DNA of 29,350 nucleotides from an uncultured virus (IMG/VR IMGVR_UViG_3300043540_000465) (taxonomy: Duplodnaviria; Heunggongvirae; Uroviricota; Caudoviricetes): the IMG/VR virus record IMGVR_UViG_3300043540_000465; one strand, written 5' to 3'. Numbering within the stretch: position 1 is the first letter of the stretch; each line of letters begins with the position of its first letter. The translations under genes and the position numbers were made by a program. A model generated the notes under the pieces. It did no database searches. It was not told the DNA's origin and was given only the letters and a program-made list of their open reading frames with translations. This document shows positions 7,723-29,350 of this stretch, one piece after another.

Positions 7723-7893
7723 CTGAGTAGTCGTGAGATCGATGGGTATCAAGTCTGTTGTGTCAACTGCCGCAACAAGCACCATATAGCGATCTAAAAG
7801 AGGGTATCTTTGCTACTAGCCCAGGGTATTCCTGAGCGGCGCCTACTTTACCGTTGTCACTACCACGCTACTATGTTCACGCGGAGGAGATCC

Positions 7894-10842: not shown

Positions 10843-10931
10843 CTGCGCCCTAGCTTGTAAAGACAGGCCACTATGTCAGTGGCTAGACGGACCAAGCTCT
10901 AGGCTTGGTTCGCACGGGAAGATACGCAGAA

Positions 10932-13736
10932 ATGCACGAAACCCTGCGACGCCGCTACGACTACTGCAACAAGTTCTGCCCGCTGTACAACTCTGAACAC
11001 GTCACCAACCGTCACGTGCCCAGCGAGGTAGTACAACGCAACGCGGCGGGCGGGGTCGACATCGCGTTCGTCGCCGAAGCCCCAGGCGAAGAGGAGGACT
11101 TGCAGCTACGCCCGCTGGTGGGCCGGTCGGGGGCCAAGCTGCGCGGCCACCTGGCGCGCATCGGCATGGAGGGCGTGGGCTATGCCTTCCTTAACATCTG
11201 CAGATGCAGACCTACCAAGCTGGTGCCGAATGAGCGGACCGCCAAGCTGGAGGTCATTAACCGTACGCCAACGGTGAAAGAGCAGCAGGCGTGCGTGCGG
11301 TACCTGTGGGAGGACTTGCAGCAGCTGCGCCCCACCAAGATCGTAGCCCTGGGCAGCACCGCCACCAAGATACTGCTGCCGACGCTCAAGGGTGGCATCA
11401 CCGATGAGCATGGACGCGTGCATGTGCAGAAGATACGCGGCCTCAAACGTCCCCGCACCATCATCCCCACCTACCACCCCGCGGCGGCCCTGTATGACAA
11501 GGCCGTCGAACCGTACTTGGTGGAGGATCTGACCCGCGCGCTGAACAAGACGACCAAGACCTGGAACGCGAACGGCAAGACCCGGGCACTGCTGACGCTG
11601 AAGGACGTGAGCAAGTTCATCCACCGCTTGCGGCACAAGCTGACTCCGGAGCACATCGTCAGCTTCGACGTGGAAACCACGACCACCAATCGGGTCGGGC
11701 CGAATCGCCTGCTGTCCATCGCCTTCGCCTACAACGACACCACGGCCTACGCCATTCCCTACGACCACCCCAAGGCGCCGTGGACGCCCCGCGAGTTCAA
11801 GAAGCTGCGGCGCATGCTGCGGCGGCTGTTCATCAAACCCAATCCATCGTTTGGCTACTGGGCGGCGCACAACTCGTCGTTCGACCAGCAAATCATCCAC
11901 AAGGAGCTTGGCACCTTCGTCATCAGTAGGCCGACGCTGGACACGATGTGGATGTTCTTCGGCTACGACGAGACGCGCTTGGACATCAAGCACCCACGTC
12001 CGTTCGCGTTGAAGCAACTGCTAATCGAGTTCCTCGATTGGAATCCGTACGACGACGATATGCTCAAGCTGCGCGAGCGGGGGCGGATGGACGACGCCGA
12101 CCTGCTGAAGCTGCTGGCGTACAACGGCACCGACTGCTACGCCACCATTCGATTGATCGCGTGGATCAAAGAGCAGGCCGGGGATAGCTACTGGCCCAAG
12201 TTGCTACGCCTAGCCGACAAGCTGATGGCCCCGGCGCAGTTGGCCCTGAACCAAGTCGAGCTGAACGGGTTTGCCATCGATGTCGGACTCGCGCAGAAAC
12301 TGTACTCCAAGCAGTCACCGTTGCTGAAGGAGCTAGATAAGATCAAGGAGTGGTTCCGCCACTACAAGCCAGCCCAGCGGGTCAACAAGCGGATACTGCA
12401 ACAGCAATCGCGGGGCATGCCCACGCTGTTTGCCAATCGCGAGTGGGTGTTCGATCTGCGCAAGCGCACCCACTTGCTGGAGTTGTTCATCGAGGAGCTG
12501 GGCCTCGCCCCCATCAACTTCGGTAAGGAGCTGTGGAAGGGCAAGCCCGGCCCCAAGATCGACAAGAAGTTCAAGGACGCGTACAAGGACCACGAGGCGG
12601 TCAAGAAGCTAAAGCAGTTCGGCGAGATCGACAAGCTGATCTCGTCCTACGTCAAGTCGATCCTCACCAAGTTCCTGCGCACCAACCCCGACTGCGCGGA
12701 TGGACGTGTGCGCTCGCACTTCTGGACAACGCGTACGGTCACCGGCCGTCTGGCGTCGAAGAACCCCAACCTGCAGCAGATCCCGAGGAAGTCCGACGAG
12801 GATGATACGCTGCAGGCCAAGACCCAGATCAAGAACATGTTTTGCGCCACGCCCGGCTGGGCGTTGGTGTCCGCCGACTTCATGCAGGGCGAGGTGTACC
12901 TGCTGGGCCAGGTATCCCGCGACGCCAACTTCTGCGCGCTGCTGTGGCGCATCCGTAAGCTGATGGAGGAGTACGAAAAGCGGCCATCGGAAGAGCTAGC
13001 CAAGCAGATCAAGAACGACGGTGACGTGCACCGCCAAACCGCCGCGCTGATGTTCAACGTCGACGTCAAAGACGTCACCAAGGACATGCGGCAGACCGCC
13101 AAGGCCATCGTCTTCGGTTTGATCTACGGCAAGGCCATCACCACGCTGGCCAAAGATCTGAAGATTAGTGACGAGGAAGCCAAGAAGAAGGCCAAGATGT
13201 TCTTCTCGCGCTTCCCCGCTGCGGAGAAGTGGCTGCACAAGATCGAGCTGTTCGCCATCAAGCACAAGTTCGTGGAGTCGGTGCTGGGACGTCGTCGCCG
13301 GTTCCCGCGGGTGGGCGATCGCACCAATCCTGATCCCAAGGAAGACGGCAAGGCCCGGCGACGGGCGCGCAACTCGCCCATCCAGTCTCTGCTGTCGGAC
13401 ATCACCCTGCACGCCGCCGGGAGGTTGCAGCAGTATATCTGGCAGCATAAGCTGACGTGGCGTATCGTTGACATCGTGCACGATGCCATCATCGCCGAGG
13501 TACCGCTGCCGGAGATGGCATCGTACATCCGCGTGACCAAGCGCGTCATGACCGACCTCACGCCAATTGAACGGAACTTCAACATGAAGTTTGTGGTGCC
13601 GATGAACGTGGAGTTCGAGGTGGGTACGCATTACGGGCAGCTGAAGGGCTTGGAGCCTGGGGTGGCAGGCATCCGCGCCGCCAAGCAGCAGATCCGCAAG
13701 GAGTGGCAGAGCTACGGCTACCGCATGGCGGAGTAG
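10932..13736 (+). CDS. polA: Family A DNA polymerase with N-terminal family-4 uracil-DNA glycosylase domain and 3'-5' exonuclease
   Basis: UDG: CNKFCPL, AEAPGEEE..RPLVGRSG, NICRCRP, NRTPT..E...C, TYHPAAAL. Exonuclease: FDVET, HNSSFD, YNGTD. Polymerase: TVTGRLASKNPNLQQIP, motif A DFMQGE, motif B RQTAKAIVFGLIYG, motif C VHDA. Start is ATG 10932 or TTG 10905. Confidence 0.95.
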   Translation: MHETLRRRYDYCNKFCPLYNSEHVTNRHVPSEVVQRNAAGGVDIAFVAEAPGEEEDLQLRPLVGRSGAKLRGHLARIGMEGVGYAFLNICRCRPTKLVPNERTAKLEVINRTPTVKEQQACVRYLWEDLQQLRPTKIVALGSTATKILLPTLKGGITDEHGRVHVQKIRGLKRPRTIIPTYHPAAALYDKAVEPYLVEDLTRALNKTTKTWNANGKTRALLTLKDVSKFIHRLRHKLTPEHIVSFDVETTTTNRVGPNRLLSIAFAYNDTTAYAIPYDHPKAPWTPREFKKLRRMLRRLFIKPNPSFGYWAAHNSSFDQQIIHKELGTFVISRPTLDTMWMFFGYDETRLDIKHPRPFALKQLLIEFLDWNPYDDDMLKLRERGRMDDADLLKLLAYNGTDCYATIRLIAWIKEQAGDSYWPKLLRLADKLMAPAQLALNQVELNGFAIDVGLAQKLYSKQSPLLKELDKIKEWFRHYKPAQRVNKRILQQQSRGMPTLFANREWVFDLRKRTHLLELFIEELGLAPINFGKELWKGKPGPKIDKKFKDAYKDHEAVKKLKQFGEIDKLISSYVKSILTKFLRTNPDCADGRVRSHFWTTRTVTGRLASKNPNLQQIPRKSDEDDTLQAKTQIKNMFCATPGWALVSADFMQGEVYLLGQVSRDANFCALLWRIRKLMEEYEKRPSEELAKQIKNDGDVHRQTAALMFNVDVKDVTKDMRQTAKAIVFGLIYGKAITTLAKDLKISDEEAKKKAKMFFSRFPAAEKWLHKIELFAIKHKFVESVLGRRRRFPRVGDRTNPDPKEDGKARRRARNSPIQSLLSDITLHAAGRLQQYIWQHKLTWRIVDIVHDAIIAEVPLPEMASYIRVTKRVMTDLTPIERNFNMKFVVPMNVEFEVGTHYGQLKGLEPGVAGIRAAKQQIRKEWQSYGYRMAE

Positions 13737-17441: not shown

Positions 17442-18419
17442 CTACCCTGCTGCTTCTACCAGAGATGCAAGCCGCTCGGCGGCGGCTTGCAGATCTTCCA
17501 GGGATCGCCGTTCCCCACGTGGGGAACCAGCGATCCCGTCGTGCCCACCGGCACGAGGACCCCACAGCTCTTGCACCAGCTTCCGGCAACTGACGCCGGG
17601 AACCGGCTCTGCAAGACTCGCGGTGATCTCACCGCGAGTCGCATTGAAAGACACTACTCCCCGACAGATCCTCCCGTCGGGGGTGGCGTACAGATGGTTG
17701 ACGAATGCGGGAGACACCCGCACAATCACCTCGCCAACCACCTGCACAAACGAGGAGGAGTTCAACTCCTCCTCGCGGCGGGCGAATTCCTCGCCCGCCC
17801 GGAGAAAGCTCTGATCGCCATCAAGGATGGCGACCAGGGCTCGCTTTGCTTCTTCGACGCGATCTGTCACGTCAAGGACCCCCCCGTCGCGGGGGGGAAA
17901 TACCCGATGCATCTCGCTCCACGCCCAGAAAGCGTGGAGACGGGCGACGTCGACCGGCTCGGCACCGGCTTCTCCAAGCCGGTGCGGCCCATGAGTGTCG
18001 ACGTAGGCCGCGAGCTTCCAAAAGCCTTCGGCCTCGGGCTTGCGCCCGAGGATAGCGAGGACGCCCCCCAGGGCGTCGAGGTCCAAGTGAGAGACCCCGA
18101 CGCACTCAACTCCCAGCTCCCTGTTCTCTCGGAGACAGGGGGCCGGGTTCTTGGCCCTTGGCCCGTGGTGGGCCAGGGTATCTAACGACCCTTCTACAAC
18201 AACATCTCCGTATTCCGCCTCGACCGTCGCGGTCGAGGCGTACGGAGCAAGAGCAGCCCGGAGAGCCTCAGGGCTGCTCGAAAGCAGCACCTTCGGATAC
18301 TCGAGCATGCGCTCGGCTCGCTCCCACCTTGAGTAATCCGGCTCCAGAGGTTCGCCAGCATCGCGAATGTCCTGCGACAGCCGCTCCAGCTCGTCCACGT
18401 GCATCTCCACTTGCTTCAT
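17442..18419 (-). CDS. Putative DHH/DHHA1-like phosphoesterase with atypical motif order
   Basis: TLAHHG, VSHLDLDALGG, VDTHGPH and C-terminal AGGHDGIAGSPR. AAGGA RBS before MKQVEM; the frame stays open upstream to 18575. Confidence 0.55.
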   Translation of the reverse strand: MKQVEMHVDELERLSQDIRDAGEPLEPDYSRWERAERMLEYPKVLLSSSPEALRAALAPYASTATVEAEYGDVVVEGSLDTLAHHGPRAKNPAPCLRENRELGVECVGVSHLDLDALGGVLAILGRKPEAEGFWKLAAYVDTHGPHRLGEAGAEPVDVARLHAFWAWSEMHRVFPPRDGGVLDVTDRVEEAKRALVAILDGDQSFLRAGEEFARREEELNSSSFVQVVGEVIVRVSPAFVNHLYATPDGRICRGVVSFNATRGEITASLAEPVPGVSCRKLVQELWGPRAGGHDGIAGSPRGERRSLEDLQAAAERLASLVEAAG

Positions 18420-18579
18420 CTTCGTGTCCTTTCTGGTAGGTCGCACATCGTGCATACATCCACTGCCTACGCACGAACCGTCCGGTAGAGTGACGCACTT
18501 GGCGTCGGGGGCCGATGCCGCATGCATCGTACCCAGACGCTCCCGCGATTGCGTGGGGCCTGCTAGCTTGCGCATGCTA

Positions 18580-18849
18580 CTACTCCTCCTCGCCGCGGCA
18601 CGGTGAGCAGTAGGCCTGCAGCCGGATCTCCTGCTGCCGCCCCGACATCACCCGCAGGCCGAAGGTCGACAGCGGCAGGCGCTGGTGACATTTGGGGCAC
18701 ACCCGCTCCAGCTCCTTGCCGCCGTCCTGCAGCACCACGCGGTGCCCGTTGATGGTCATGCCCTTCACCACCACCCGCCGGGCGGTCACCGGCTCGAACC
18801 GCTTGCCTTCGGCCAGCGGCAACAGCAACTGCGTAACGCGTTCGCTCAT
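18580..18849 (-). CDS. Small zinc-finger protein
   Basis: CPKC...YCSPC, GGAGG RBS, ATGA coupling. Confidence 0.8.
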   Translation of the reverse strand: MSERVTQLLLPLAEGKRFEPVTARRVVVKGMTINGHRVVLQDGGKELERVCPKCHQRLPLSTFGLRVMSGRQQEIRLQAYCSPCRGEEE

Positions 18850-19238
18850 GACCTCCCCCTTCGTACTCCTCTACGGATCCGCGACACGATAAACCCCAGC
18901 CATTTGTCGAAGCGTGCGATGATGGTATAGTGCACCGTGAGAAGATCGTCCTCGGACGCCGTCTCCGTGTCCCGCACCCGCTGCGTCTCCTCGCGCAGCG
19001 CCGCCAGTTCCGCCTCGACGCCACGCAGCTTCGCTTCCACCACCCGTAGCTCTTCTAGCGAAAGGGTGCGGTTCCCACTGCGCCAGCCACCCTCCGCCGT
19101 GAAGTCCGCAGCCAGGGTTTCGCTGAGATAACACTCCAGATCACCCATGAGCCAGCGGATCTGGTTCACGAGGTTGGTGCGCTCGGTAGCCTCCTGCTTA
19201 CGCTGGCGCTGCTCGGTCAGCGAATGGATCTTCGGCAT
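18846..19238 (-). CDS. Hypothetical coiled-coil protein
   Basis: Operon packing, codon bias, GGAGGGG RBS. Confidence 0.75.
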   Translation of the reverse strand: MPKIHSLTEQRQRKQEATERTNLVNQIRWLMGDLECYLSETLAADFTAEGGWRSGNRTLSLEELRVVEAKLRGVEAELAALREETQRVRDTETASEDDLLTVHYTIIARFDKWLGFIVSRIRRGVRRGRS

Positions 19239-19241
19239 CGC

Positions 19242-19562
19242 CTACCCCTCCGCGACGGTCTCGGCCGCCTGCTCGGCAGCTTGTTCCGCGAGCAACTCGG
19301 CCCACCGTTCGTGTCGCGCCAGCAGGCACACCTGCAGGGCGCACTGGCGCACCACCTGATCTTCTGGCAGCCCGAGGTTGTGCATCTGCAGCACCTCGGC
19401 GGCGTCCACCAATCTGCCGGGATCGGCAGCAAACTTGGCGTCGTCCTGAGCAGCGCAGGTGTCATGCTCGACGTCGGCCCAGTCTCGTCCGATGCGATGC
19501 GCGTCCTGCAGCAGCTCGATGATGGAGGTCGTGGTCATCACAGCACCGTCGCGTCGAGCCAT
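19242..19562 (-). CDS. Hypothetical protein
   Basis: Operon packing, GAGGAGGA RBS. Confidence 0.7.
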   Translation of the reverse strand: MARRDGAVMTTTSIIELLQDAHRIGRDWADVEHDTCAAQDDAKFAADPGRLVDAAEVLQMHNLGLPEDQVVRQCALQVCLLARHERWAELLAEQAAEQAAETVAEG

Positions 19563-19565
19563 GGC

Positions 19566-20171
19566 CTAGTCCTCCTCGTCCTTGCCGTCCTTGACCTTGC
19601 TGCCGCACTCGGGGCAGAACTTGCCGCCGTTGGCGATGGTGGCCTCGCAGTGCGGGCACTTGCGCTCGTGCAGCGGCCACCACCGCAGGCCGTAGGAGAC
19701 GCTGACGTTCTCGATCTTCTCCCGCAGCTTCGCGGGCACCTTGCCGGCGTTGCAGGCCTCGTGGTACGCCTTGACGTCCAGCACCACCTTCTTGACCAGC
19801 ACCTGCTCGGCCAGCCCCGGCAACTTCTTCTCGATGATGGCCGCGGCCAGCTCGTAGTTGATCCGCTCGCGCCGCGTGCCCAGGTTCTCGACCTTGTAGT
19901 CGCCGATGAGCAGGATGCTCTGCTCCGGACGATCCGGGTCGTGTAGGCCGTACTTCACCACCGCTAGAGTTACCTGCTCGCGAAGGCGTTCCCACTTCTC
20001 GCGCGCCTCGACCATGTCGAGGAACGCCTGCTCCAGCGCCACCGCCTTCTTGCCCTCCAGCCGAGGGTACAGCACCTCGGCCTTCTTCAGGCCGAGGTGG
20101 CCGGTGCCCCGCCGCTCCTTGGCCCGCTTCTCCTGCAACAGTTCCTTCGCGCTCTTCTCTCGGATGGCCAT
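19566..20171 (-). CDS. Basic protein with C-terminal zinc ribbon
   Basis: CPHCEATIANGGKFCPECGSK, AAGGAG RBS, very strong GC3. Confidence 0.85.
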   Translation of the reverse strand: MAIREKSAKELLQEKRAKERRGTGHLGLKKAEVLYPRLEGKKAVALEQAFLDMVEAREKWERLREQVTLAVVKYGLHDPDRPEQSILLIGDYKVENLGTRRERINYELAAAIIEKKLPGLAEQVLVKKVVLDVKAYHEACNAGKVPAKLREKIENVSVSYGLRWWPLHERKCPHCEATIANGGKFCPECGSKVKDGKDEED

Positions 20172-20249
20172 GATCGTCTCCTTCTCGCTCTTCTCGCTCT
20201 TCTGGCCGATGATCGACTCGATGAGTGTACTTGAAGTACGGGTTCGGGT

Positions 20250-20579
20250 TTACGGCTGCGCCCGCAGCCGGTGGGCGATCTGCAGCTCGCTGGAAGTGGT
20301 GAACGGCACGTCGTGCACCACCTCGTCCAATGCCTGCACCACGCAGCACACGATCAGCGCGCTGAGACTCGTGGCGCAGTTGCCGAATCGCTTGGCCACG
20401 TAGTGGTCGAGCTTGTCCCCCTGCAGCAACTTCGACCGCGGGTTGATGTTCTGCACGTGCTTGCGCAGGCGATCGACCACCTGCTGCGACGTCTGCGCCA
20501 CGAGATCCATGATCTCGCGGCTCACCGGCTGCATCAGCCGATGGGCGTACTCGGACTCCAGCTTATCGCGCTTGGTCAT
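20250..20579 (-). CDS. Hypothetical protein
   Basis: GAGAGG RBS then MTKRDKLE. Confidence 0.8.
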   Translation of the reverse strand: MTKRDKLESEYAHRLMQPVSREIMDLVAQTSQQVVDRLRKHVQNINPRSKLLQGDKLDHYVAKRFGNCATSLSALIVCCVVQALDEVVHDVPFTTSSELQIAHRLRAQP

Positions 20580-20608
20580 GGCCTCTCGCTTCGGGTTGCT
20601 GATCGGTT

Positions 20609-21043
20609 CTAGTAAGTCGGCGTCCGCGGCAGCTTCTGCCACGTGAGGTTCAGGTCGTAGTCACCCTGAACCAGCCGAGAATCGTTGGTGTACGACTCGT
20701 CCACTGTCACCAGCAGGTCGCGGCGGGCGGTGCGCACCTTCATGATCATGTGGCATCTGCCGCCGCCGAAGCTGGTGGCGTAGTCCACCTGCATCACCTC
20801 CAGCACCTGCTGCGGGAACGGCATCTGCTCCGTGCGCTCCACCCCCTTGTTCCACCAGTGCCGCAGCTGCTGCAGCTTCTGCAGCGCGACCTCGGGCTGC
20901 AGAAGCTGCAGCCGCTCCTTCTCGACTTCTGCGTCCATCTCGGCGTAGAAGTCTCGCATAACCTCGGCACCGCTGCGCCCCTTGCCCTCGCGCTGCGCCT
21001 CGCTGGCCCAGAACTCGCCCTGGGTCGTATCGATCTTTGGCAT
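20609..21043 (-). CDS. Hypothetical protein
   Basis: GAGGA RBS; first gene after the 21103-21131 promoter. Confidence 0.8.
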   Translation of the reverse strand: MPKIDTTQGEFWASEAQREGKGRSGAEVMRDFYAEMDAEVEKERLQLLQPEVALQKLQQLRHWWNKGVERTEQMPFPQQVLEVMQVDYATSFGGGRCHMIMKVRTARRDLLVTVDESYTNDSRLVQGDYDLNLTWQKLPRTPTY

Positions 21044-21102
21044 GTCGTCCTCTCGCTTCGGGTTTCTGATCGCTTCTTCGCTGCTACCATGCTCCCACCT
21101 CC

Positions 21103-21131
21103 AGTATATACGAAGGACGAGGCGGAGTCAA
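21103..21131 (-). promoter_or_regulatory. Sigma70-type promoter
   Basis: TTGACT-17 bp-TATACT. Confidence 0.85.
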
Positions 21132-21369
21132 GGCCGTATCGCAGAAAAACTCGCGAAAAAACCCGAGGGAAATCGCAGCTTTAGCCGCCGGTTCTGGTGT
21201 ACCAGCCCCCGGTGCGGAAGATGCTACACAATCTGGGGTCAGTTTTCCTGCTTGGCGCGCTTGCGCGCGGCGTCCAGCTTCGCGCGGAAGCCCGGCGCGT
21301 GCAGATGGTCCGTAGCTTCCGCCTGCTTCACCGCCGGCTCCATCTGCAGCAGGTCCTCGGCACACTTCT

Positions 21370-23400
21370 TCAGCGTTTGATGTTGAGGTCGGTGGGCGTG
21401 AGCACGACCTCGCGGATGCCGGCCGCGGCCAGCTGGCTCTGGACCTCAGTGAGCTTAGCCAGCACCTGCGCTCGCAGGTCGGCGTTGCTGACCCCGGGAA
21501 GCGCGACTGCCGTAGACGCAGGCGTAGGTGGAGCCTCCGCCTCGCTGGGCAGCAGCGTCACCCGCCACAGCTGATCCCCCACCTGCAGCTTCATGCGGTG
21601 CAGATGCTTCTCCATGGCGTGCGGCGTCATCACCCGGCACTTGTGCTGCAAGCACCAGGAGGAGAAGGCCGAGTACAACGGCATGGTGCCGATGCTGCCA
21701 GCGTCCGTGCGACACCGCTCCAGCAGGAACAACTCCAGCGCATCGTAATCCGGGCCGGATTTCCGCGGGGGCGTAGCTTCCTTGGTAGGCACCGGCAGCG
21801 GGGCGACCACGGGTGGCGTGCCCGGCTTGAGCCGCAGCGCCCGCACCACCACCAGCTTGCCCTGCTGACGGAGTCTACGCCGCGCAAACCCACGGCGATC
21901 CAGCCACTGCGAGAACACGATGTTGTGGTAGGGCGTGGCTCCGTAGGCTTGGCACCACGTGCAGTAGTCCTGATAGATCTCACTCGCGATGGTGTCACCT
22001 CCGGATGTCGTGCGCTCATCCAGCCACAACTCCAGCACCTCGCAGTCCACCATGATCTTGCCGCGCCCGTGGTTGAACTGCAACGTCGTGGGCAGTGCCG
22101 GTGCCGGTTCCGGTGGAGGCGTGGGCGATGTCGCTTCCGGATGCCGCGGCTTAGTGCGCAGCTTGGGCGGCGGCGCCGTGTTCTGCTCCGGTCGCAGCTG
22201 GATCACCGCGGCGACCGGTTCCACCCATGGTAGGGGTACCAGACCCTCACGCTCCAGCGTGACGCGAATTTCACTGGTCTTGCGTGGGATCAGGATCGTC
22301 TGCACCCCCGCGGTCTTGGCCTTCTCTCCCAGCTTCTCGCTTTCGGCATGGCCGATCATATCGGAGAGGATGAGCACCAGGTTGATGTCCTGGGGCAGTG
22401 GGCGCCTAAACTGATTGGTCCGGTGCCACTCCCAGTGGTAGCGCAGCTCGATGTCGTAGAGACTGCGTAGCTTGTACCGAAGCTCACGGATACGATCCTT
22501 GGGGCCACCCGCAATCAATGCCACGTACTTGGCGGGTGTGGTAGTCTCCGGCGTCTCCGTCATGTTGGTCACAGTCGCCTCCGGTTTGAGCACGAAATGC
22601 CGTATAGGTAGCAGCGACGTATGCAGCTGCATATCCTTAGCTAACCCTACAGCCATTAGCCGCGCCGAAGTGCTCCACCGCTCGGAGCGCAGTTGCTGCG
22701 GGCAGTGCTGCAACGACTCCAGCAGCTCGTAGTAGAAGCGTGGCCGATGGTCGTCGTCTATCTCTGACTTCAGCCACTGCCCATCGTCCCGCACGAAGTG
22801 CGCGTCGGCCCACAGCCGCTCGTCGTCGTTGCCGATGCGGAACTCGACGATGCGCTCAGGACTAAGCAGCGTACCTACGAGACGCTGCTCACCGTTGCAC
22901 GCCGCTGCGAGCATAGCCTCCTGGATCTGCTCGCGCGTTTGCCCTCGCTCCATCGCGCTCACGACCACACCCGCACCCCAACTGACGTAGAGTGCCGGCA
23001 GGTTCTCGATCAGTGGCGGCAACGCAGTAGGTGGGGTCAGCGGGGTGGTGTCCTTCTTTCCAAGCACCGTCGCTATCCCGCTGAGATATAGGTCGGGAAA
23101 CATCTCCACGAAGCCGGCGGTTGCCAGCTGCAGCAACGTGGGTATCTGGCGCGTCGAGTTCGAGGACCCGCCGAGCAGAAGCGTGAGGTAGTGACCAACG
23201 GCCCACTGCTGCGGCGTGCGCCGCGCCGGATCGGCATCCCACGAGTTGAAGCGGTATTCGCCCATCGCGATCACGCTCCTTTTGCCTCCGACGACTTCGA
23301 GATCGACCAGCCGACGATGGCCGGCTGCAGCCCCTTGTACTCGCGACACTTGGGGCAGCATCGCACGGTAGTCGTGGTGCGCCTTTGCGTTCGCGCTCAT
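21370..23400 (-). CDS. Multidomain protein: unknown N-terminal half, DUF2325-like domain, two D5/primase-C-terminal-like winged helices
   Basis: ALIAGGP...LPQDINLVLILSDMIGH...AKTAGV is DUF2325-like. WLDERT...EIYQDYCTWC...FSQWLDRRGF and FLLERC...LYSAFSSWC are the winged-helix-like repeats. Possible internal start at 22563 (MTETPET). Confidence 0.7.
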   Translation of the reverse strand: MSANAKAHHDYRAMLPQVSRVQGAAAGHRRLVDLEVVGGKRSVIAMGEYRFNSWDADPARRTPQQWAVGHYLTLLLGGSSNSTRQIPTLLQLATAGFVEMFPDLYLSGIATVLGKKDTTPLTPPTALPPLIENLPALYVSWGAGVVVSAMERGQTREQIQEAMLAAACNGEQRLVGTLLSPERIVEFRIGNDDERLWADAHFVRDDGQWLKSEIDDDHRPRFYYELLESLQHCPQQLRSERWSTSARLMAVGLAKDMQLHTSLLPIRHFVLKPEATVTNMTETPETTTPAKYVALIAGGPKDRIRELRYKLRSLYDIELRYHWEWHRTNQFRRPLPQDINLVLILSDMIGHAESEKLGEKAKTAGVQTILIPRKTSEIRVTLEREGLVPLPWVEPVAAVIQLRPEQNTAPPPKLRTKPRHPEATSPTPPPEPAPALPTTLQFNHGRGKIMVDCEVLELWLDERTTSGGDTIASEIYQDYCTWCQAYGATPYHNIVFSQWLDRRGFARRRLRQQGKLVVVRALRLKPGTPPVVAPLPVPTKEATPPRKSGPDYDALELFLLERCRTDAGSIGTMPLYSAFSSWCLQHKCRVMTPHAMEKHLHRMKLQVGDQLWRVTLLPSEAEAPPTPASTAVALPGVSNADLRAQVLAKLTEVQSQLAAAGIREVVLTPTDLNIKR

Positions 23401-23411
23401 GCCGCCCTCTG

Positions 23412-23834
23412 TCAGTAATTCTTGCCGAAGTATTCCGCCGCAAGGTCCTCTTCGTGCTCGCGTTTCAACTCGGCCGCGGTATCGGGGTCGAAGTTGTCGT
23501 CGTAGCTGCTCACTGCACGAGCGCGCAGCGCCTGCTCCGCGTCCGCCATCAGCCCCAGCGTCTCCAGCACCGCTTCGCTGCTGGGGATCTCTTCGAAGGT
23601 CGGGTGCCGCGCGGTACCCCGCACCAGCAACTCCGTGACCTCGGTGATCTCCACCTCGCCGCCTTCGGCATCGCAGGAGTCATCCGGGTCCATGCGGATG
23701 ATCGCCGGGCGGTACGGTTCGACGTTGCCCTCCACCCGGAACTCCCGCGACTGCTTGATGAAGCGGCCGGTCTTCGCATCGCGATCGGTACCGGCCTCCC
23801 AGACGACATACACACTGAATCTTCCGGTTCGCAT
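23412..23834 (-). CDS. Acidic hypothetical protein
   Basis: GGGAGG RBS, codon bias. Confidence 0.75.
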   Translation of the reverse strand: MRTGRFSVYVVWEAGTDRDAKTGRFIKQSREFRVEGNVEPYRPAIIRMDPDDSCDAEGGEVEITEVTELLVRGTARHPTFEEIPSSEAVLETLGLMADAEQALRARAVSSYDDNFDPDTAAELKREHEEDLAAEYFGKNY

Positions 23835-23879
23835 CTTCGCCTCCCTAGTAATCGGATCCGTCGTAGTTCTGCAGTTCGC

Positions 23880-24149
23880 TCACGCGATACCTCCCATGCT
23901 GATCAGCGCGCGGAACGCCAGAACTCCGGCCATCATGCTCGCGCCGGTGCGGAAGCAGTAGGCTTCCACCGCCAGCTGCGGATCGCTGAGGTACGCCGCC
24001 AGCTCCACCGCGTTGGGAAGTAGCGTACAGATGCTGTCCGGCCCGCTCAGGGTCCGCGGCGCCGCCACCGTGATGCTGCCGATGAACGCGCGGGTCAGCT
24101 TCGGCTTCCGTGGCGTCAGGGTCGGGGTGCTGATCGTGGTCGTGGCCAT
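23880..24149 (-). CDS. Hypothetical protein
   Basis: AAGGAG RBS then MATTTISTP. Confidence 0.75.
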   Translation of the reverse strand: MATTTISTPTLTPRKPKLTRAFIGSITVAAPRTLSGPDSICTLLPNAVELAAYLSDPQLAVEAYCFRTGASMMAGVLAFRALISMGGIA

Positions 24150-24162
24150 GGTCGATCTCCTT

Positions 24163-24402
24163 CTACGACTGCCGCTCACTCTGCGGCAGTTCCCAGTGGG
24201 CGCCGCAATTGCAGCGCCAGATGTCCGGCTCGTCCGTGCCGCTGGCACCGTACGTCTCGATCTCGGTGCTCTCCGCGCTGTCGCAGTGCGGGCAGAAGAT
24301 CTCGGGCGCCGCCGTCGCCTTTGCCGCCTCCCGCTCCTTGCGCACCTGCCGCTGCAGTTCCTCCATACGCGTGGGTCGCTCGTACTTGGTTCCGTTTGCC
24401 AT
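24163..24402 (-). CDS. Small zinc-ribbon protein
   Basis: GGAGG RBS, CPHC...CNCG. Confidence 0.75.
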   Translation of the reverse strand: MANGTKYERPTRMEELQRQVRKEREAAKATAAPEIFCPHCDSAESTEIETYGASGTDEPDIWRCNCGAHWELPQSERQS

Positions 24403-24440
24403 AGCCATCCTCCGTGGTGGGCTTCTGTGCCCCCACCTCC

Positions 24441-24468
24441 AGTGTATACCTAGCGTTTGGTGGAGCAA
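24441..24468 (-). promoter_or_regulatory. Sigma70-type promoter
   Basis: TTGCTC-16 bp-TACACT, followed by GGAGGTGGG as at the 21103 promoter. Confidence 0.75.
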
Positions 24469-24696
24469 GGGAAAAGCGCGAAAAAGTGCATTACTTTCCC
24501 TTGGAAAGGCGGGGGTTTAGCCGCTGTTTTCGCACTACGCTGGGCCAGAGCCAGCTTTGATGGGGATGCTACGCTTTTTCACCGCAGGTCGCTGCGGTGG
24601 AAGCACTCGTTCGCCATGACCAATCTCCTAGAGCAGCAGGGCTCCATTGGCGCGCACCAGCATCTCTACTGGTGCGCCCTAGCAGCTCAGCTACGC

Positions 24697-25197
24697 CTAG
24701 CGCCGCGGCAGCTTGCGCTTCAGCTTCTTGCGTGGCATGGGCTCGTCGTCGTCCTCCACCACCCGCTCCTTGCCCTTCTTGCCCTTGGGAAAATCCGTGG
24801 CGTCCGACTCGTCGTCCGCGTCCTTCTTCGGCTGGTCCTCGTCCTGCGGCGGCTCCGCGTGCTTGTCCAGCCACTTGCTGAACCGCTTGGTGGAGCAGCC
24901 CTCGTCCGTGACCACGTGCGCCGCCCGCAGCTCCTCAAGGAAGCCATCCAGCGCCGCGGTGACGTTCGCCGCCTCCTCCAGCGTCATCCGCCCCAGCTTG
25001 CGGTAGTAGCGCTCGCCGCTGCGCGCCAGCACCCCGGTGCGCATCATACCGATCTTGGGCGGGCCGTCGTTGTAGCTTACAACCGTGAGCCGGATGACCT
25101 GCTCGGCCGCAGTGTCCACGTCCGCGATCAGGTGCAGATCGCGGTTCAGCTCCACGTTCCAGCCGCGCTTGCGCTCACCACTCTTGTCGTTGGCCAT
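24697..25197 (-). CDS. Putative PC4/YdbC-like ssDNA-binding protein with charged tail
   Basis: RLTVVSYNDGPPKIGMMRT...RKLGRMTLEEA resembles the PC4-fold pattern; GGGAG RBS. Confidence 0.55.
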   Translation of the reverse strand: MANDKSGERKRGWNVELNRDLHLIADVDTAAEQVIRLTVVSYNDGPPKIGMMRTGVLARSGERYYRKLGRMTLEEAANVTAALDGFLEELRAAHVVTDEGCSTKRFSKWLDKHAEPPQDEDQPKKDADDESDATDFPKGKKGKERVVEDDDEPMPRKKLKRKLPRR

Positions 25198-25210
25198 GGT
25201 CGTTGTCTCC

Positions 25211-25369
25211 CTAGTCCTTGGGCTTCTCGTACTTGTGGTCGATGTCCTGGTTGATCTTCTGCAACCGCTTCAGCTTGATGCTACCGCGCGCCATCTCGGC
25301 CTGCAGCGCCGTCTCGGTCATCCCGGGGAACCGCTGCAACGCCTGCTTGATCGTGAGGTACTTGGCCAT
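25211..25369 (-). CDS. 52-aa protein, possibly excisionase/AlpA-like HTH (below the ORF-track cutoff)
   Basis: AAGGAG RBS, MAKYLTIKQALQRFPGMTETALQAEMARGSIKLKR...KPKD*. Confidence 0.7.
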   Translation of the reverse strand: MAKYLTIKQALQRFPGMTETALQAEMARGSIKLKRLQKINQDIDHKYEKPKD

Positions 25370-25382
25370 GTGCATCTCCTTC

Positions 25383-25739
25383 CTAGCGAGTCGTCATCAA
25401 CTTGCGGCACTGGACGCAGGTCACCTGCGCCGGGGCCGACGTTATCACCACACCCTCCGTGATCTCGGCCCCCGCACCGCAGGCCGCGAACGGCACGTCC
25501 GCCTCGCGCTGGCCCACGGCGTAGTGGATCTTGATCTCGTGCACCTTCTGCACGGTGACGTTTCCCAGGTCAAAACCCACGAACTGCAGCGCCACCCAGT
25601 CCTTTACCTTGCGCACCGTCAACGCCCGTGCTTCGCCGTCACTGCATTCGGTGCGCAAGCGCAGCAGGATGTCGAAGGACCGGTGCAGCGTCACCGGCAC
25701 GGCCGTGTCATCGAGCTTTGGTTTGCTTCGGGTCGCCAT
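25383..25739 (-). CDS. Hypothetical protein with C-terminal zinc finger
   Basis: GAGGAGG RBS, H...ACG...VTCVQC. Confidence 0.75.
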   Translation of the reverse strand: MATRSKPKLDDTAVPVTLHRSFDILLRLRTECSDGEARALTVRKVKDWVALQFVGFDLGNVTVQKVHEIKIHYAVGQREADVPFAACGAGAEITEGVVITSAPAQVTCVQCRKLMTTR

Positions 25740-25883
25740 CGCGGTCTTCCTCCTCTCCGCCTAGTAAAGCCGCGGACCATGCCATCGCAGCAGCTACCGT
25801 TGCGACAGATGCCATTGTCGTAGTTGCACGCCGTGTCTTCCGGACACGCGGGCTGCGTATCCTGCTGCGTTGTTGTTCACCAT

Positions 25884-26087
25884 TCAGGTCACGGTCGTGG
25901 ACCAGGCTTCTACTGCCGTCTTCGCCTCACGTAAAGACTTGTAAGTCTCTACGAGAACCCAATCTCCGACTCGACGTCGCCGCAGGACAGTCCACCCACG
26001 CCCCTCGTGGACCACCAAGCGGTATGGACGGCGCCAGACATACGAGCCGTCCGAACAGAGATACCAAAATGAAGATGGCCTTGTCAT
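25884..26087 (-). CDS. Small hypothetical protein
   Basis: AGGA RBS; ends YKSLREAKTAVEAW. Confidence 0.6.
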   Translation of the reverse strand: MTRPSSFWYLCSDGSYVWRRPYRLVVHEGRGWTVLRRRRVGDWVLVETYKSLREAKTAVEAWSTTVT

Positions 26088-26105
26088 AGTGGCTTCCTGA
26101 GAAGC

Positions 26106-26321
26106 TTATCGAGGTCGCTGGCGAATAGGTTCAGGCACCGGCGCGGGAGTTGGAAGCGGCTGCGACACCACCAGCGGGTGCTTCCGCAGTGCCTGCTTCA
26201 ACTTCTTGCCCAGGGTGCCACACCGCAGGGAGCTGACGGGCGGCGCGGGTTCGGCGCAGCCCATGGTCTGTTCGAAGCACTGCTGGCACCACTCGTGCCG
26301 TCCGTGTTGGCATCGCGTCAT
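26106..26321 (-). CDS. Small hypothetical protein with CxHGxxxxCxxC motif
   Basis: First ORF after the 26364-26392 promoter, preceded by the shared pre-start motif. Confidence 0.65.
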   Translation of the reverse strand: MTRCQHGRHEWCQQCFEQTMGCAEPAPPVSSLRCGTLGKKLKQALRKHPLVVSQPLPTPAPVPEPIRQRPR

Positions 26322-26363
26322 CGTCGTTCTCGCTTTCGTAGCGCTGATCGGTGTCCCGACTCT

Positions 26364-26392
26364 AGTATATACGTAGTGTGGCCCGAGGTCAA
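26364..26392 (-). promoter_or_regulatory. Sigma70-type promoter
   Basis: TTGACC-17 bp-TATACT. Confidence 0.85.
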
Positions 26393-26537
26393 TGCCGTCG
26401 GCACGCCGTCGGTCACAGCAGTTTGCGGCGAAAGGGGTTGAGGCGGCTGGCCCACTGCCGCAGCAAATCTGGATCGGGGTACGCCTGCTGCAGGATGGTC
26501 TGCGGCGTAGATGTGCCGCCGCCACGGCCGCTCTCGG

Positions 26538-26812
26538 CCTGCCCCGTGTCGGGGCGGGTCACCGGGTTTGCAGGCTGCCCCGGTGGCCCTCTGGACCATG
26601 CATAGTTTGTCCGGCTCGCATCAAAAGGGGCAGGGGCTTACGGTCCCATCGAACCATCCTCGTTCCCGGCTGTCCTCTCGCCAGTCTGGGCAACGTGGTG
26701 TCCGCTCGCTGGGGACCGCTTTGGATCCTTACGGGCTTTACTACTCTGGCAATTAGGGGTCCATGATGGCTTTCCTCCTCTTGGAAGGCTGCGGGTTGCA
26801 TCCCCCGCCGGG
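26538..26812 (-). ncRNA. Candidate structured RNA, tandem copy 2 (275 nt)
   Basis: Colinear blocks shared with copy 1; stems are kept despite sequence change; no convincing ORF. Confidence 0.55.
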
Positions 26813-27089
26813 CCTCGCCCGTGTTCGGGCACATCGCTTCCCTAGCGGGGCAGTAGAAAGCGACGGGTGAACCAGTCTTAGTTTGGTTACAACGCCCTTC
26901 GGCTTCGGGATTGTCCCCTTGCCCATCTAGGCAGCGCAGCCAACACGTCTGCGTCGGGGCTTCCAGTCTCAATGCTTGTGCTTTCCAATCGCGGGCTTCA
27001 GTGTCCCACTGGCATTAGAGGCGCTCAAGGGTCCATGGGCCTTTCCTCCTTGGTTGGAAGTCGCTGGTGGGTTGCATCTCCCCGCCGGG
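26813..27089 (-). ncRNA. Candidate structured RNA, tandem copy 1 (277 nt)
   Basis: Starts immediately after the TGA of the 27090 gene: CCCGGCGGGG-GATGCAACCC...CTTCCAA...GGAGGAAAG...ATGGACCC. Confidence 0.55.
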
Positions 27090-27479
27090 TCAGACGTTGG
27101 GCGTGCCGTGACGACCGGACGCGGCCACGTAGAGCTTGTCCGTGGCCGTGCCCTCCTCCTCCGGCAGCGAGTCCAAGCCGCTGATGAAGACCCGCTTGGC
27201 CAGGTCCCTCCGCACGGCGAAGAACTGGCCCCCGCCCCGTCCGCCGTGCCAGTCGTAAACCAGCGTGTAGCGCTGGATGGACTTGTGCCCCTGGGCCTCG
27301 GTCTTGACCGGGATGGTCTCGACCTTGACCCGCCGAAGCTTGTGCTGCCTGACCGTGCTCGGGGTGACCGCTCCGGTGTCCAGCTTCTCGAACACGCGGA
27401 GAGCCCGGCGCTTGAGCTTGGTCCTGATGTCTGCCTCGACTTCCGGCTTCCTCGGCGGAGCCGCCTTGGTCTTCTCCAT
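27090..27479 (-). CDS. Basic hypothetical protein
   Basis: AGGAGG RBS, strong codon bias. Confidence 0.8.
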   Translation of the reverse strand: MEKTKAAPPRKPEVEADIRTKLKRRALRVFEKLDTGAVTPSTVRQHKLRRVKVETIPVKTEAQGHKSIQRYTLVYDWHGGRGGGQFFAVRRDLAKRVFISGLDSLPEEEGTATDKLYVAASGRHGTPNV

Positions 27480-27549
27480 GATCAGTCCTCCTGATGTGGT
27501 TCAGGAACAGCTTGATGGCGCACTCAAGTGTCTGACCAGCCTCCCCGGT

Positions 27550-27813
27550 TCAGACATAACGCACCGAAGACCTCTCGAGATTCGCCAGCAATTGCTGGCG
27601 AGAAACTTCGCCCAGTGGTGGGCACCCTTTGTGCCGACCCTGACCCAGCATGTGCGCCAGGTCGTCATGCGTCCTGAGATTGTGCTGATTGATGAGAGCC
27701 AGCAGCAGCTTCCTGGGCATCGGGGTGTGGCCGTGTGGACCTCCAAGAATGGTTACAAACCAGCCGTGCCCCGACTGCCCAGGAAGCTGCCAGAGATCGC
27801 GATCTCCGATCAC
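27550..27813 (-). CDS. Hypothetical protein
   Basis: GAGGAG RBS then GTG 27813 (MIGDRDLWQLPG...). Confidence 0.55.
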   Translation of the reverse strand: MIGDRDLWQLPGQSGHGWFVTILGGPHGHTPMPRKLLLALINQHNLRTHDDLAHMLGQGRHKGCPPLGEVSRQQLLANLERSSVRYV

Positions 27814-27972
27814 GATCTTGCTCTCCTCACCGTTCGTACCGTGGTAGCGGGCCTGTGACGTCGTTGCTAGCTCTCGGGTTCTGACGTCCGATACCCTTGC
27901 GGCCCCTCTAGGCCAAAGTCCCATCGGTGGGTTCTAGACCACTAACGGGACCAGGTGTTCCCTGGACATCCC

Positions 27973-28010
27973 AAAAAAAAGCAGCGGAGTGACACCACCT
28001 GCTTCCGCCG
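27973..28010 (-). terminator. Intrinsic terminator / attenuator
   Basis: CGGCGGA...TCCGCTG stem (alternatively AAGCAG...CTGCTT) followed by a T8 run. Confidence 0.7.
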
Positions 28011-28044
28011 ATCCCAACGGCCTCCTAGCCGAGGCGTCTCGGTA

Positions 28045-28119
28045 CTAGGAGATTTTTGCTCGGCTTAAACTAGGTGCATGAACTTCGCTATACCACACCA
28101 TCTCAGCGTCAGCGATCAT
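28045..28119 (-). CDS. Putative 24-aa leader peptide (MIADAEMVWYSEVHAPSLSRAKIS)
   Basis: GGAGG 7 nt before the ATG; lies between a promoter and a terminator; stop codon sits inside a hairpin arm. Confidence 0.4.
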   Translation of the reverse strand: MIADAEMVWYSEVHAPSLSRAKIS

Positions 28120-28213
28120 TAGCATGCCTCCATTAACCCTTTACATAGTTGGTGGGGGGAGGGTCGGAATGGGGGAAAGGGGTGCCCCGTTTGGCACTCC
28201 TGCTTACAGCTCT

Positions 28214-28242
28214 AGTATATGCCTAGCGTTCCGACGAGGCAA
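28214..28242 (-). promoter_or_regulatory. Sigma70-type promoter
   Basis: TTGCCT-17 bp-TATACT, with upstream TTTTTCGC as at two of the other promoters. Confidence 0.8.
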
Positions 28243-28341
28243 GCGAAAAACAGCGCCAGGGCGAAACTTTTTCCGTCGAGACTACGCATACTTACGCGAT
28301 TTCCGCGCCGGAGAGTGAACCTGGCTGTGCGGGGTGCAGAG

Positions 28342-28587
28342 ATGCTGAAGCACGACGGCGAGGTGTGGGTCTACTGGAAGGATCCAGAATCTGGTAAGCG
28401 CAAGAGCGCTCTGGCGGAACGGGTTACGAGTTCCGGGGTCATGCTCAAGCAAGTCGAGGACAAGAACCCCGAGCGCATCAAGGTTCTGGACGTGCTTGAG
28501 TTCATCCAGGGAGAGGAGCACAAGGCCCGACTCTCCGGTAGCGTCAACGAGCGCGAACCTCCCACCACGCGGAAGAAGCGAAAGTGA
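28342..28587 (+). CDS. Hypothetical protein
   Basis: GGGGTG RBS, MLKHDGEVWVYW..., good codon bias from 28342. Confidence 0.7.
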   Translation: MLKHDGEVWVYWKDPESGKRKSALAERVTSSGVMLKQVEDKNPERIKVLDVLEFIQGEEHKARLSGSVNEREPPTTRKKRK

Positions 28588-28595
28588 GGCAGGCC

Positions 28596-28760
28596 ATGGA
28601 ATACTGCACGCTGTCGCTCTACCTTCCGCGCCGTTCCTACCTTCACCTGCTGGACGTGGCGGTGCAGATGCTCGGGTTCAAGTCGCGGTCGGAGTGTCTG
28701 ACGCGACTGTTGGAGCGGCTGTTTGCCGCCGGGCGTTGCATTCCTCTGACAGCTAGCTAG
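28596..28760 (+). CDS. 54-aa ribbon-helix-helix (CopG/NikR-like) DNA-binding protein (below the ORF-track cutoff)
   Basis: MEYCTLSLYLPRRSYLHLLDVAVQMLGFKSRSECLTRLLERLF: beta strand, helix, G-x-x-SRSE, helix. GAGG RBS. Confidence 0.65.
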   Translation: MEYCTLSLYLPRRSYLHLLDVAVQMLGFKSRSECLTRLLERLFAAGRCIPLTAS

Positions 28761-29350
28761 CTAGCGCGTGCGATTCCGCTTCTGCCGCCCGCTCGTCAAC
28801 TTGTCGGCCAGTTCTTCGCTTGCGAGCGGGAGCAACACCGCGATCCCGCGCAGCTTCGCCTGATACCGCAAGTCCCGGTTCGTTCCTGGGTACGCGGCGG
28901 CGATCTGCGCGTCGCTCTCGCCTTCAATGATGCTGCGCCTGGCGATATCCACGTTGCGCGCCGCGCGCCCGGTCAGCGTCAGCGTGCTAAGCAACGTATA
29001 GAATTCTGCACGACACCGCGCCTCTCGCGCCGCTTCCTCGCTCTCGACGCGCGCCGCTTCCTCGGCGCAAAGCTCGCGCCGCTTCAGGGAGTCAAGGTGC
29101 ATACGCCGAGAGATGATGAGGTTACGCGTCGCGATGAAGGCGTACCCCTTTGCGTTCACGGGCGCGTGCTCAAGGCAGCGCTCGCGAATGGTCGCCAGGT
29201 CAGCCAGCGACAACCGCACCATGCCGCCCATGTGGCGCAGTGCAACTGCGATGCCTCGGCTGATGGCGGCGTGCTTCAACATGTGCTCCCCCACCAGGTC
29301 GCCGTTGCAGCCGTTCTGCTCGTTCGCGTTCCCGTTCGCGTTCCCGTTCG
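28761..29350 (-). CDS. ECF/sigma70-family sigma-factor-like protein, 5' end outside the window
   Basis: Region-2-like NAKGYAFIATRNLIISRR and region-4-like IIEGESDAQIAAAY...RYQAKLRG. The frame is open to the window edge through NGNA repeats. Confidence 0.55.
   Translation of the reverse strand, partial: NGNANGNANEQNGCNGDLVGEHMLKHAAISRGIAVALRHMGGMVRLSLADLATIRERCLEHAPVNAKGYAFIATRNLIISRRMHLDSLKRRELCAEEAARVESEEAAREARCRAEFYTLLSTLTLTGRAARNVDIARRSIIEGESDAQIAAAYPGTNRDLRYQAKLRGIAVLLPLASEELADKLTSGRQKRNRTR

Follow-up and report, generated by a model that had tools for sequence, protein, structure and literature searches.

The minus strand of an uncultured virus (Caudoviricetes; IMG/VR record IMGVR_UViG_3300043540_000465), of which a stretch of 29,350 nucleotides (nt), here called the window, was analysed at its full length, carries between positions 26538 and 27089 two adjoining units that, judged from sequence comparison, are a real tandem duplication, and an old one, within the early region of a novel phage. 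We tentatively favour, at somewhat less than even weight, the reading that a small early-gene cassette was duplicated in a hyperplastic region and has since partly decayed, while its leader may still act in cis on translation. Each unit has a 5' module, a centre and a 3' module; the conservation between the units is uneven, their centres carry a codon-type signal, and neither unit shows an excess of RNA structure. A first-pass annotation, made from the letters of the window, had taken the pair for an undescribed phage array of structured non-coding RNAs. The units do not look like a pair of structured RNAs, and nothing in our results favours the ribozyme, guide or decoy role then proposed. The units and their outer modules are as follows.

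26813–27089, minus strand: unit 1 (277 nt), beginning right behind the TGA of a 129-codon gene
26538–26812, minus strand: unit 2 (275 nt), the second copy
26990–27089, minus strand: 5' module of unit 1, with a small hairpin (27086–27066) and a CUUCC/GGAGG hairpin (27060–27045) that pairs the Shine-Dalgarno (SD) site
26730–26812, minus strand: 5' module of unit 2, with a hairpin (26808–26791) and a CUUCC/GGAGG hairpin (26787–26774)
26813–26890, minus strand: 3' module of unit 1, with hairpins A (26888–26870), B (26865–26832, the 3' strand of which ends in AUG 26834–26832) and C (26831–26816)
26538–26616, minus strand: 3' module of unit 2, with hairpins A (26612–26593), B (26589–26556, containing GUG 26562–26560) and C (26555–26541)

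The 5' modules (27089–26990 versus 26812–26730) are identical at 72 of 80 aligned bases (z = 12.0, equalled by none of 500 dinucleotide shuffles), and the sequence 5' of the minigene ATG described below at 44 of 46. The 3' modules (26890–26813 versus 26616–26538) have weak homology (z = 3.1, with 2 of 500 shuffles equal), and the centres (26989–26891 versus 26729–26617) are unrelated as DNA (z = -0.5, 333 of 500 shuffles equal). When the units were split in an alternative manner the 5' part scored z = 12.2 and the remainder z = 1.9 (11 of 300 shuffles). Two direct-repeat seeds, with offsets of 272 and 276 nt, emerged from the repeat search, and these together with the module alignment bear out the colinear, head-to-tail arrangement on the early-gene strand that had been described; the unit pair is absent from the 32 rows of Tandem Repeats Finder. 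The motifs quoted in the first-pass annotation were all found on the minus strand where it had placed them, and those tested are confined to the two units with the exceptions of ATGGACCC (one extra site, at 23693) and AAGCCCG (three extra sites). When the 5' module was modelled from sequence only, 49,642 bases (the window and records L001–L003) gave two matches, namely the two units. The motifs and the duplication stand as observed, the homology is uneven, and the shared stems are present in part. Likewise, the units are indeed of near-equal length, although this is the net result of large opposing indels, and the non-triplet indels held to argue for an RNA are a feature of the 5' module, where nucleotide-level conservation across frame-breaking indels does extend over ~100 nt. 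A third, degenerate unit downstream was considered and rejected, as its nucleotide score was not significant (61 of 300 and 139 of 300 shuffles as good); unit 1 also has a weak protein-level likeness to the tail of the 49-codon gene that starts in unit 2 (5 of 300 shuffles), on which we do not rely.

The 5' module reads as a translation-initiation leader, in that it brings a strong SD site before a very short open reading frame (ORF), and further ORFs of this kind lie behind it.

27025–27036, minus strand: minigene 1, ATG GAC CCT TGA (Met-Asp-Pro-stop), 8 nt after GGAGG 27049–27045; SD duplex -11.2 kcal/mol
26753–26764, minus strand: minigene 2, ATG GAC CCC TAA (Met-Asp-Pro-stop), 9 nt after GGAGG 26778–26774; SD duplex -11.7 kcal/mol
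26998–27015, minus strand: second mini-ORF of unit 1, ATG CCA GTG GGA CAC TGA, in the frame of minigene 1 and 9 nt beyond it
26638–26649, minus strand: third minigene, ATG GGA CCG TAA (Met-Gly-Pro-stop), in unit 2 behind GAGGA and with no equivalent in unit 1

The SD sites of the two leaders, AAGGAGGA and GAGGAGGA, lie 8 and 9 nt upstream of the ATG as counted from GGAGG, and their strength places minigene 1 fifth and minigene 2 joint first among 32 start sites, beside the best gene starts of the phage. In each leader a 5-bp CUUCC/GGAGG hairpin pairs the SD, and both sites are predicted to be paired for the most part (probability of being unpaired 0.08 and 0.21 at 37 °C). Met-Asp-Pro-stop is retained with different proline and stop codons despite a 10-nt indel (the extra bases being in unit 1), and we estimate the chance of a stop directly after Pro surviving the indel at ~3/64; the unit 2 counterpart of the second mini-ORF reads TTG CCA GAG TAG. 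Because the leader is kept nearly base for base, nucleotide selection or gene conversion is called for. It is the contrast between this leader with its Met-Asp-Pro-stop, kept nearly unchanged, and the remainder of the unit, diverged to saturation, that makes the pair of interest. The leader could be an RNA element conserved in old paralogues, that is, a ribosome-loading or ribosome-stalling minigene with a poor termination context, which might serve as a ribosome relay to the SD-less, hairpin-closed starts that follow or might tie up ribosomes, release factor or tRNA-Pro early during infection of a hot-spring host, in the manner of the lambda bar minigenes. We think this improbable; if true, leader and minigene together would be a candidate phage translational control element.

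A different use of the same minigenes would be as a trap, whereby stable mini-messages carry a Met-Asp-Pro-stop that stalls terminating ribosomes or sheds peptidyl-tRNA and so disturbs early host translation. The very strong SD at the usual spacing, and the presence of the ORF in both units and in a one-unit relative (see below), are consistent with such a role, as is the Asp-Pro ending, which PMC3985003 describes as a C-terminal dipeptide that favours tagging by transfer-messenger RNA (tmRNA) and is under-represented at protein ends. The bar minigenes of phage lambda, as described in PMC8012679, offer a phage precedent for tiny SD-led ORFs; barI and barII consist of an SD, a start, one or two sense codons and a stop, surrounded by sequence that is otherwise non-coding, and both units show this form (SD, ATG, two sense codons, stop). 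However, bar reads AUG-AUA-stop, with one sense codon after the start as against two in Met-Asp-Pro-stop, and the minigene described here forms part of a duplicated 276-nt unit that also contains a relict ORF and hairpins. In addition, the trap would have to work from SD sites that are predicted to be mostly paired, and minigenes with an SD, a start and at most six codons are not enriched across the 29-kb window: there are three, all within the element (two Met-Asp-Pro-stop and one Met-Gly-Pro-stop), versus 4.4 ± 2.1 in shuffles, and two of these three are copies of each other. We regard a minigene trap as very unlikely. A strong SD in an untranslated or barely translated leader could also hold a ribosome and shield the RNA, as do mRNA-stabilising, ribosome-bound SD elements (the Bacillus subtilis hbs leader, STAB-SD; PMC5737220); those elements protect the 5' end of a transcript from RNase J1, whereas the modules of the units lie ~1.2 kb into the presumed transcript.

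The evidence that the units once held, or still hold, a short reading frame comes from their centres, in which two blocks correspond as protein.

26899–26973, minus strand: central block of unit 1 (IETGSPDADVLAALPRWARGQSRSR), in a 33-codon ORF with a TTG start (26887–26988), in the frame of minigene 1 and behind two TGA codons
26658–26726, minus strand: central block of unit 2 (IQSGPQRADTTLPRLARGQPGTR), in a long open frame (26559–26972), out of frame with minigene 2

Among nine frame pairs, the top protein local alignment matched IETGSPDADVLAALPRWARGQSRSR with IQSGPQRAD--TTLPRLARGQPGTR at a score of 44, compared with 30.0 ± 4.3 in shuffles, of which 1 of 300 reached it. The alignment spans 23 codons, 12 of which encode the same residue while base identity is 38 of 69 (55%); column shuffles keep 6.4 ± 1.6 residues (P = 0.0009, a somewhat optimistic value given that the block was chosen by protein alignment, so that the 1 of 300 is the fairer figure). 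The mismatches in the block are distributed 10, 6 and 15 over the three codon positions, 9 of the 12 identical residues are by our count encoded by different codons, and in sub-block B7 five of the seven changed codons are synonymous in the conserved frame, versus one and none in the other frames. On this alignment the likeness of the centres is codon-type conservation of a live or relict short reading frame. The first-pass annotation had argued for selection on RNA structure rather than on protein and had itself named codon-type conservation as evidence to the contrary; the centres, with 12 of 23 residues kept at 55% of bases, go against its argument. Its description of the units as non-coding throughout agrees with most of their composition, but is opposed by this 23-codon block and by the hairpin that lies over the first codons of a called gene (see below). 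Recoding or read-through of TGA in the 49-codon frame of unit 1 was also considered, and is unlikely because TGA ends 10 of 28 ORFs here.

The units were no more stable than their shuffles when folded whole (z = -0.14, 84 of 200; z = -0.93, 35 of 200), and the 5' modules and centres had no excess stability either (z = -0.44, +0.77, +0.46 and -0.23). A Needleman-Wunsch alignment of the units gave a structure conservation index (SCI) of 0.29 and an alifold energy of z = +0.42 against column shuffles, and the 5' module alone an SCI of 0.58 (z = -0.83, with 35 of 200 shuffles as good). In the 3' modules both minimum free energy (MFE) folds consist of the same three consecutive hairpins, with z = -2.33 (5 of 200) and -2.32 (2 of 200); 5.4% of 78-nt windows across the whole window have at least three stems at the energy of the 3' modules, and among 11,602 window pairs ~275 nt apart there are 50 in which this holds for both members. 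RNAalifold missed the hairpins on a MAFFT alignment of the 3' modules (-5.5 kcal/mol), in which they are offset by 1–2 columns from register. When the unit 1 structure was imposed on the 3' modules 79.1% of cells paired (equalled by 32 of 500 shuffles), and 3 of 22 pairs, in hairpins A and B, were changed on both sides (equalled by 51 of 500). As there are only two sequences, no firm covariation emerges. The shared stems of the first-pass annotation recur in part, as three 3' hairpins in MFE folds stabler than shuffles, but alifold, the imposed structure and whole-unit stability do not back them.

No known RNA family covers the units, as had been supposed and proposed for checking: a search of the whole window with 4227 Rfam models gave no match at the gathering score, and at E ≤ 10 in 26300–27300 it gave only two matches to microRNA models (E 9.2 and 9.7) at 27201–27262, outside the units. 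ARAGORN found no tRNA or tmRNA genes in the window, and a tmRNA-like RNA was dropped. A CsrA sponge of the CsrB/RsmZ type was dropped as well; the GGA count is 20 in 552 nt, against 13.4 ± 3.8 in background windows, of which 18 of 227 have as many. The idea of a 5'–3' closing helix as a switch was also dropped: predictions place such a helix in unit 1 and the short unit form, but at a shifted position in unit 2. A nut/boxB-like role for the terminal hairpin was likewise dropped, as no test supported it. No promoter-like or terminator-like sites were found inside 26538–27089.

Based on these results we consider it improbable that the pair represents two structured non-coding RNAs (a scaffold, decoy or ribozyme) processed from an early transcript and acting in trans. 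Such RNAs would fit the lack of a called gene or coding statistic in 27089–26563, the retention of the leader over frame-breaking indels, the three-hairpin layout shared by the 3' modules, which are stabler than shuffles and few of whose counterparts among window pairs match them, and the three pairs in hairpins A and B that change on both sides. They fit poorly with whole units, 5' modules and centres that fold like shuffles, with the low SCI and the failure of alifold to recover the hairpins, with pairing and covariation measures that shuffles match, with a centre whose conservation is codon-type and not pair-type, with terminal hairpins that overlap the start and first codons of a called gene, and with units that have no promoter-like or terminator-like site. 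Of the earlier interpretation, then, the duplication, the absence of an Rfam family, the conservation of the leader and the hairpins are retained, while the terms structured and non-coding are not.

The 3' hairpins can instead be viewed in relation to the frames that start in them (codon scores, here and below, are in bits per codon from a model trained on ten long ORFs).

26559–26834, minus strand: 92-codon open frame, from the hairpin-B AUG of unit 1 across all of unit 2; -0.05 bits per codon; no recorded protein
26413–26562, minus strand: 49-codon gene, with its GUG start within the unit 2 hairpins; +0.61 bits per codon; recorded as called protein P0006

In the MFE folds AUG 26834–26832 and GUG 26562–26560 are placed alike, where the 3' strand of hairpin B ends, and both are predicted to be mostly paired (unpaired probability 0.09 for AUG and 0.14 for GUG at 37 °C). 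The codons after these starts are alike (ATG TGC CCG AAC ACG GGC GAG GCC versus GTG ACC CGC CCC GAC ACG GGG CAG GCC, or MC-PNTGEA versus MTRPDTGQA), with a three-base indel and two synonymous changes, which together lengthen hairpin C by one C-G pair. The terminal hairpin of the first-pass annotation is present in the MFE folds and overlaps the first codons of the called gene. The stop of the 92-codon frame (TGA) and the start of the gene behind it (GTG) overlap as GTGA, a stop/start layout typical of translational coupling; the coding status of this frame is doubtful. The 49-codon gene may be a truncated relic: its last 29 residues (26413–26502) are 86% identical to the C-terminus of P0007, a 237-residue CxxCxxCC (PF03692) protein of a relative, the other 208 residues of which have no counterpart in the window, which suggests that a gene was cut short or exchanged at this place.

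A short upstream ORF with a strong SD, placed before hairpins that bury the next start, recalls the leader-peptide attenuators (erm, cat and TnaC), and as in these the next start is predicted to be sequestered, here in hairpin B of both units; the TnaC leader, moreover, ends in Pro-stop like the minigenes of the units. The units differ from attenuators in that their ORF of three codons is too short for a nascent-chain sensor, the stall site is ~70–190 nt from the hairpin, there are two copies of the module, and behind one of them no convincing gene follows. No leader ORF long enough or close enough for a stalled ribosome to open the hairpin was found in the units, the minigene having three codons and its stop lying ~190 nt from the next start in both units and ~73 nt in a short variant.

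The likely transcription of the units can be deduced from the following elements.

28214–28242, minus strand: early promoter P1 (TTGCCT-17-TATACT), the likely origin of a transcript crossing the units
26364–26392, minus strand: early promoter P2 (TTGACC-17-TATACT), belonging to the next transcription unit
27090–27479, minus strand: upstream 129-codon ORFan gene; GC content at third codon positions (GC3) ~0.95; +0.76 bits per codon; the protein collection returns itself alone

The early-promoter 20-mer ACGCTAGGYATAYACTRGAG, within TTGnCn-N17-TATACT, occurs at three minus-strand sites (28229–28210, 26379–26360 and 24456–24437) in a scan that tolerated up to three mismatches, of which the site at 26379–26360 carries two. 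No sites were expected by chance; the spacing is ~1.9 kb, two of the three sites were also called sigma-70-like, and the motif occurs once in a related contig (L002, 3620–3639). The positions of this motif on the early strand put the units last in the first early transcription unit, behind a 124-codon and the 129-codon ORF, with the next promoter ~150 nt beyond them.

In the cassette reading that we tentatively favour, a leader (hairpins, strong SD and minigene) was followed by a short reading frame and three hairpins, and this cassette was duplicated long enough ago for synonymous sites to have become saturated. P1 would co-transcribe the units behind the 129-codon gene, and the strong SD sites would load ribosomes. 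Unit 1 would be a decayed copy, as its peptide frame matches the SD-ATG frame but is interrupted by two TGA codons, and the working remnant would be the leader, a cis-acting ribosome-loading site feeding SD-less downstream frames. Ribosomes would pass first to the 92-codon frame across unit 2 and then, via the GTGA overlap, to the 49-codon gene, the starts of which the hairpins would otherwise hold closed. If this holds, the element is a case of ordinary phage genome plasticity, namely the duplication and decay of a small ORFan cassette, and the claim of an undescribed non-coding RNA array is to be dropped.

A number of results weigh against this reading. GC3 periodicity, strong in the 129-codon gene (0.95 versus 0.40), collapses over 27089–26600, all ORFs within that interval score at or below 0 bits per codon in the six frames, leaving no convincing intact gene, and no gene is called in 27089–26563. 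A 137-codon ORF had no match, itself included, in 5.8 billion proteins, and exact look-up of 10 candidate ORF products from 26109–27181 (8 of which overlap the units) found none recorded, although 4 of the 10 have a GTG or TTG start, rendered as V or L by plain translation (P0006 is an example), and those misses may be artefacts. The fairer figure for the centres is softer than their nominal P value, and the ~190 nt from minigene 2 to the GUG is long for coupling. A near-perfect leader beside a saturated centre is not what decay alone would leave, and needs nucleotide selection or gene conversion. Finally, copies are limited to the two units and one near-identical variant, with no independent homologue in the collections searched.

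A BlastN search with 26400–27200 against 50,697 phage records gave no match; three pattern scans of IMG/VR gave 0, 16 and 0 matches, all 16 being ordinary gene starts unlike the units, and the single match in 185,579 species genomes was an ordinary Rhizobium gene start. The 129-residue protein found one weak locus (30 residues, E 5e-4) and itself alone among 5.8 billion proteins, while a search for related loci with PolA found none. A 676-residue protein had three relatives and two metagenome loci (L002 and L003), neither of which extends to the element; IMG/VR searches with this protein and with P0007 found none, and ESM Atlas searches with two upstream proteins gave no usable lead.

The near-identical variant was recognised in Logan contigs of a single run, which break inside the element. 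Contig depth is 416 over 26811–26907 and 370 over 27022–27123, against a baseline of 217–260, and one contig joint, with a depth of 226 and a shorter side of 28 letters, omits 27021–26906. Contigs have loose ends at 27153 and 26811; past 26811 the letters first repeat the 10-mer found behind unit 2 in the window and diverge from there on, and the two loose-end strings were not found in the window. We infer another genome or locus in the sample, having, in this order, the final 64 nt of the 129-codon gene, one centre-less unit and a diverged start of the 49-codon gene, a reconstruction drawn from the records listed (8 of 22) with a joint side of under 30 letters. This one-unit form keeps the leader, minigene and 3' module and lacks 116 nt. 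The region around the units is similarly variable: L002 (1–9455) matches window 24703–23180 in colinear pieces that are 85–99% identical, separated by insertions of ~0.25–3.1 kb with coding periodicity, and as far as the alignment goes the pattern is one of mosaic gain and loss of small early genes.

Such mosaicism is also what one would expect if the pair were purely a relic, with decaying gene fragments and duplicated junctions of no present function and a leader kept by recent partial gene conversion. The unit 1 frame cut by two TGA codons, the unit 2 frame that is off its SD-ATG, the relative in which one unit is missing and the other is shorter by 116 nt, and the resemblance of the 49-codon gene to the truncated tail of a 237-residue gene are all in keeping with this view. 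While we take it seriously, we regard it as rather unlikely, as ~550 nt of junk would seldom be retained by phage genomes, the minigene stop was retained over an indel at a chance of ~3/64, the three-hairpin layout persists with different sequences, and the start codons are at the same paired position in both units.

The contig breaks and the alternative junction coincide exactly with the unit boundary (26811–26813), and the early transcription units that flank the region are marked by the conserved promoter 20-mer, so that a DNA-level element must also be weighed, be it an origin, a repeat bound by protein, or a hotspot of recombination or boundary between modules. PeSL promoter-terminator motifs are described as mediating shuffling in T4-type phages (PMC4122927), and PeSL cassettes resemble the units in being short regulatory modules that recur in hyperplastic early regions and mark places where insertions, deletions and replacements distinguish related phages (PMC2839356, PMC4122927). 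However, a PeSL is a composite of terminator and early promoter, whereas the units have neither and the promoter motif of this phage lies outside them. The motifs of the units, moreover, occur only here within the window and L001–L003, and no iterons or terminal inverted repeats were found in the repeat search and on comparison of the ends by eye. A DNA-level role thus seems to us a very slim prospect.

The wider window is GC-rich (~62%) phage DNA without a close relative in the collections searched. A single 943-codon ORF (10905–13736, plus strand) encodes a fusion of a uracil-DNA-glycosylase superfamily domain (residues 51–199) and a family A DNA polymerase (residues 515–911), the top identity of the polymerase in a tblastn search of the 50,697 phage records being 25.7%, and an HNH endonuclease is located at 728–1318. 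One window protein is also recorded on a 153,350-base contig. The public sequencing runs that hold this stretch comprise one DNA run, labelled hot springs metagenome, with no RNA runs listed. Plausible genes in 17442–29294 are all on the minus strand, the exception being a plus-strand ORF at 28219–28587.

Three further features of the window were noted. Behind P1, ~230 nt of the minus strand (28207–27975) are free of ORFs and end in a hairpin with a T8 run (28000–27979), followed by the 124-codon ORF; this stretch, which had no Rfam match, may represent a small RNA or else a leader under terminator control. At 24675–24648 (minus strand), directly after a 166-codon gene and ~190 nt before promoter P3, there is a perfect 10-bp GC-rich hairpin, GGCGCACCAG...CTGGTGCGCC, with no T-run, which may correspond to the hairpins closing the first transcription unit. 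On the plus strand, the 9-nt repeat CGACTCGGA occurs 18 times at 8118–8409, together with a 42-nt super-repeat, inside a 343-codon ORF (7810–8841), where the array would encode an acidic, Asp/Ser-rich repeat.

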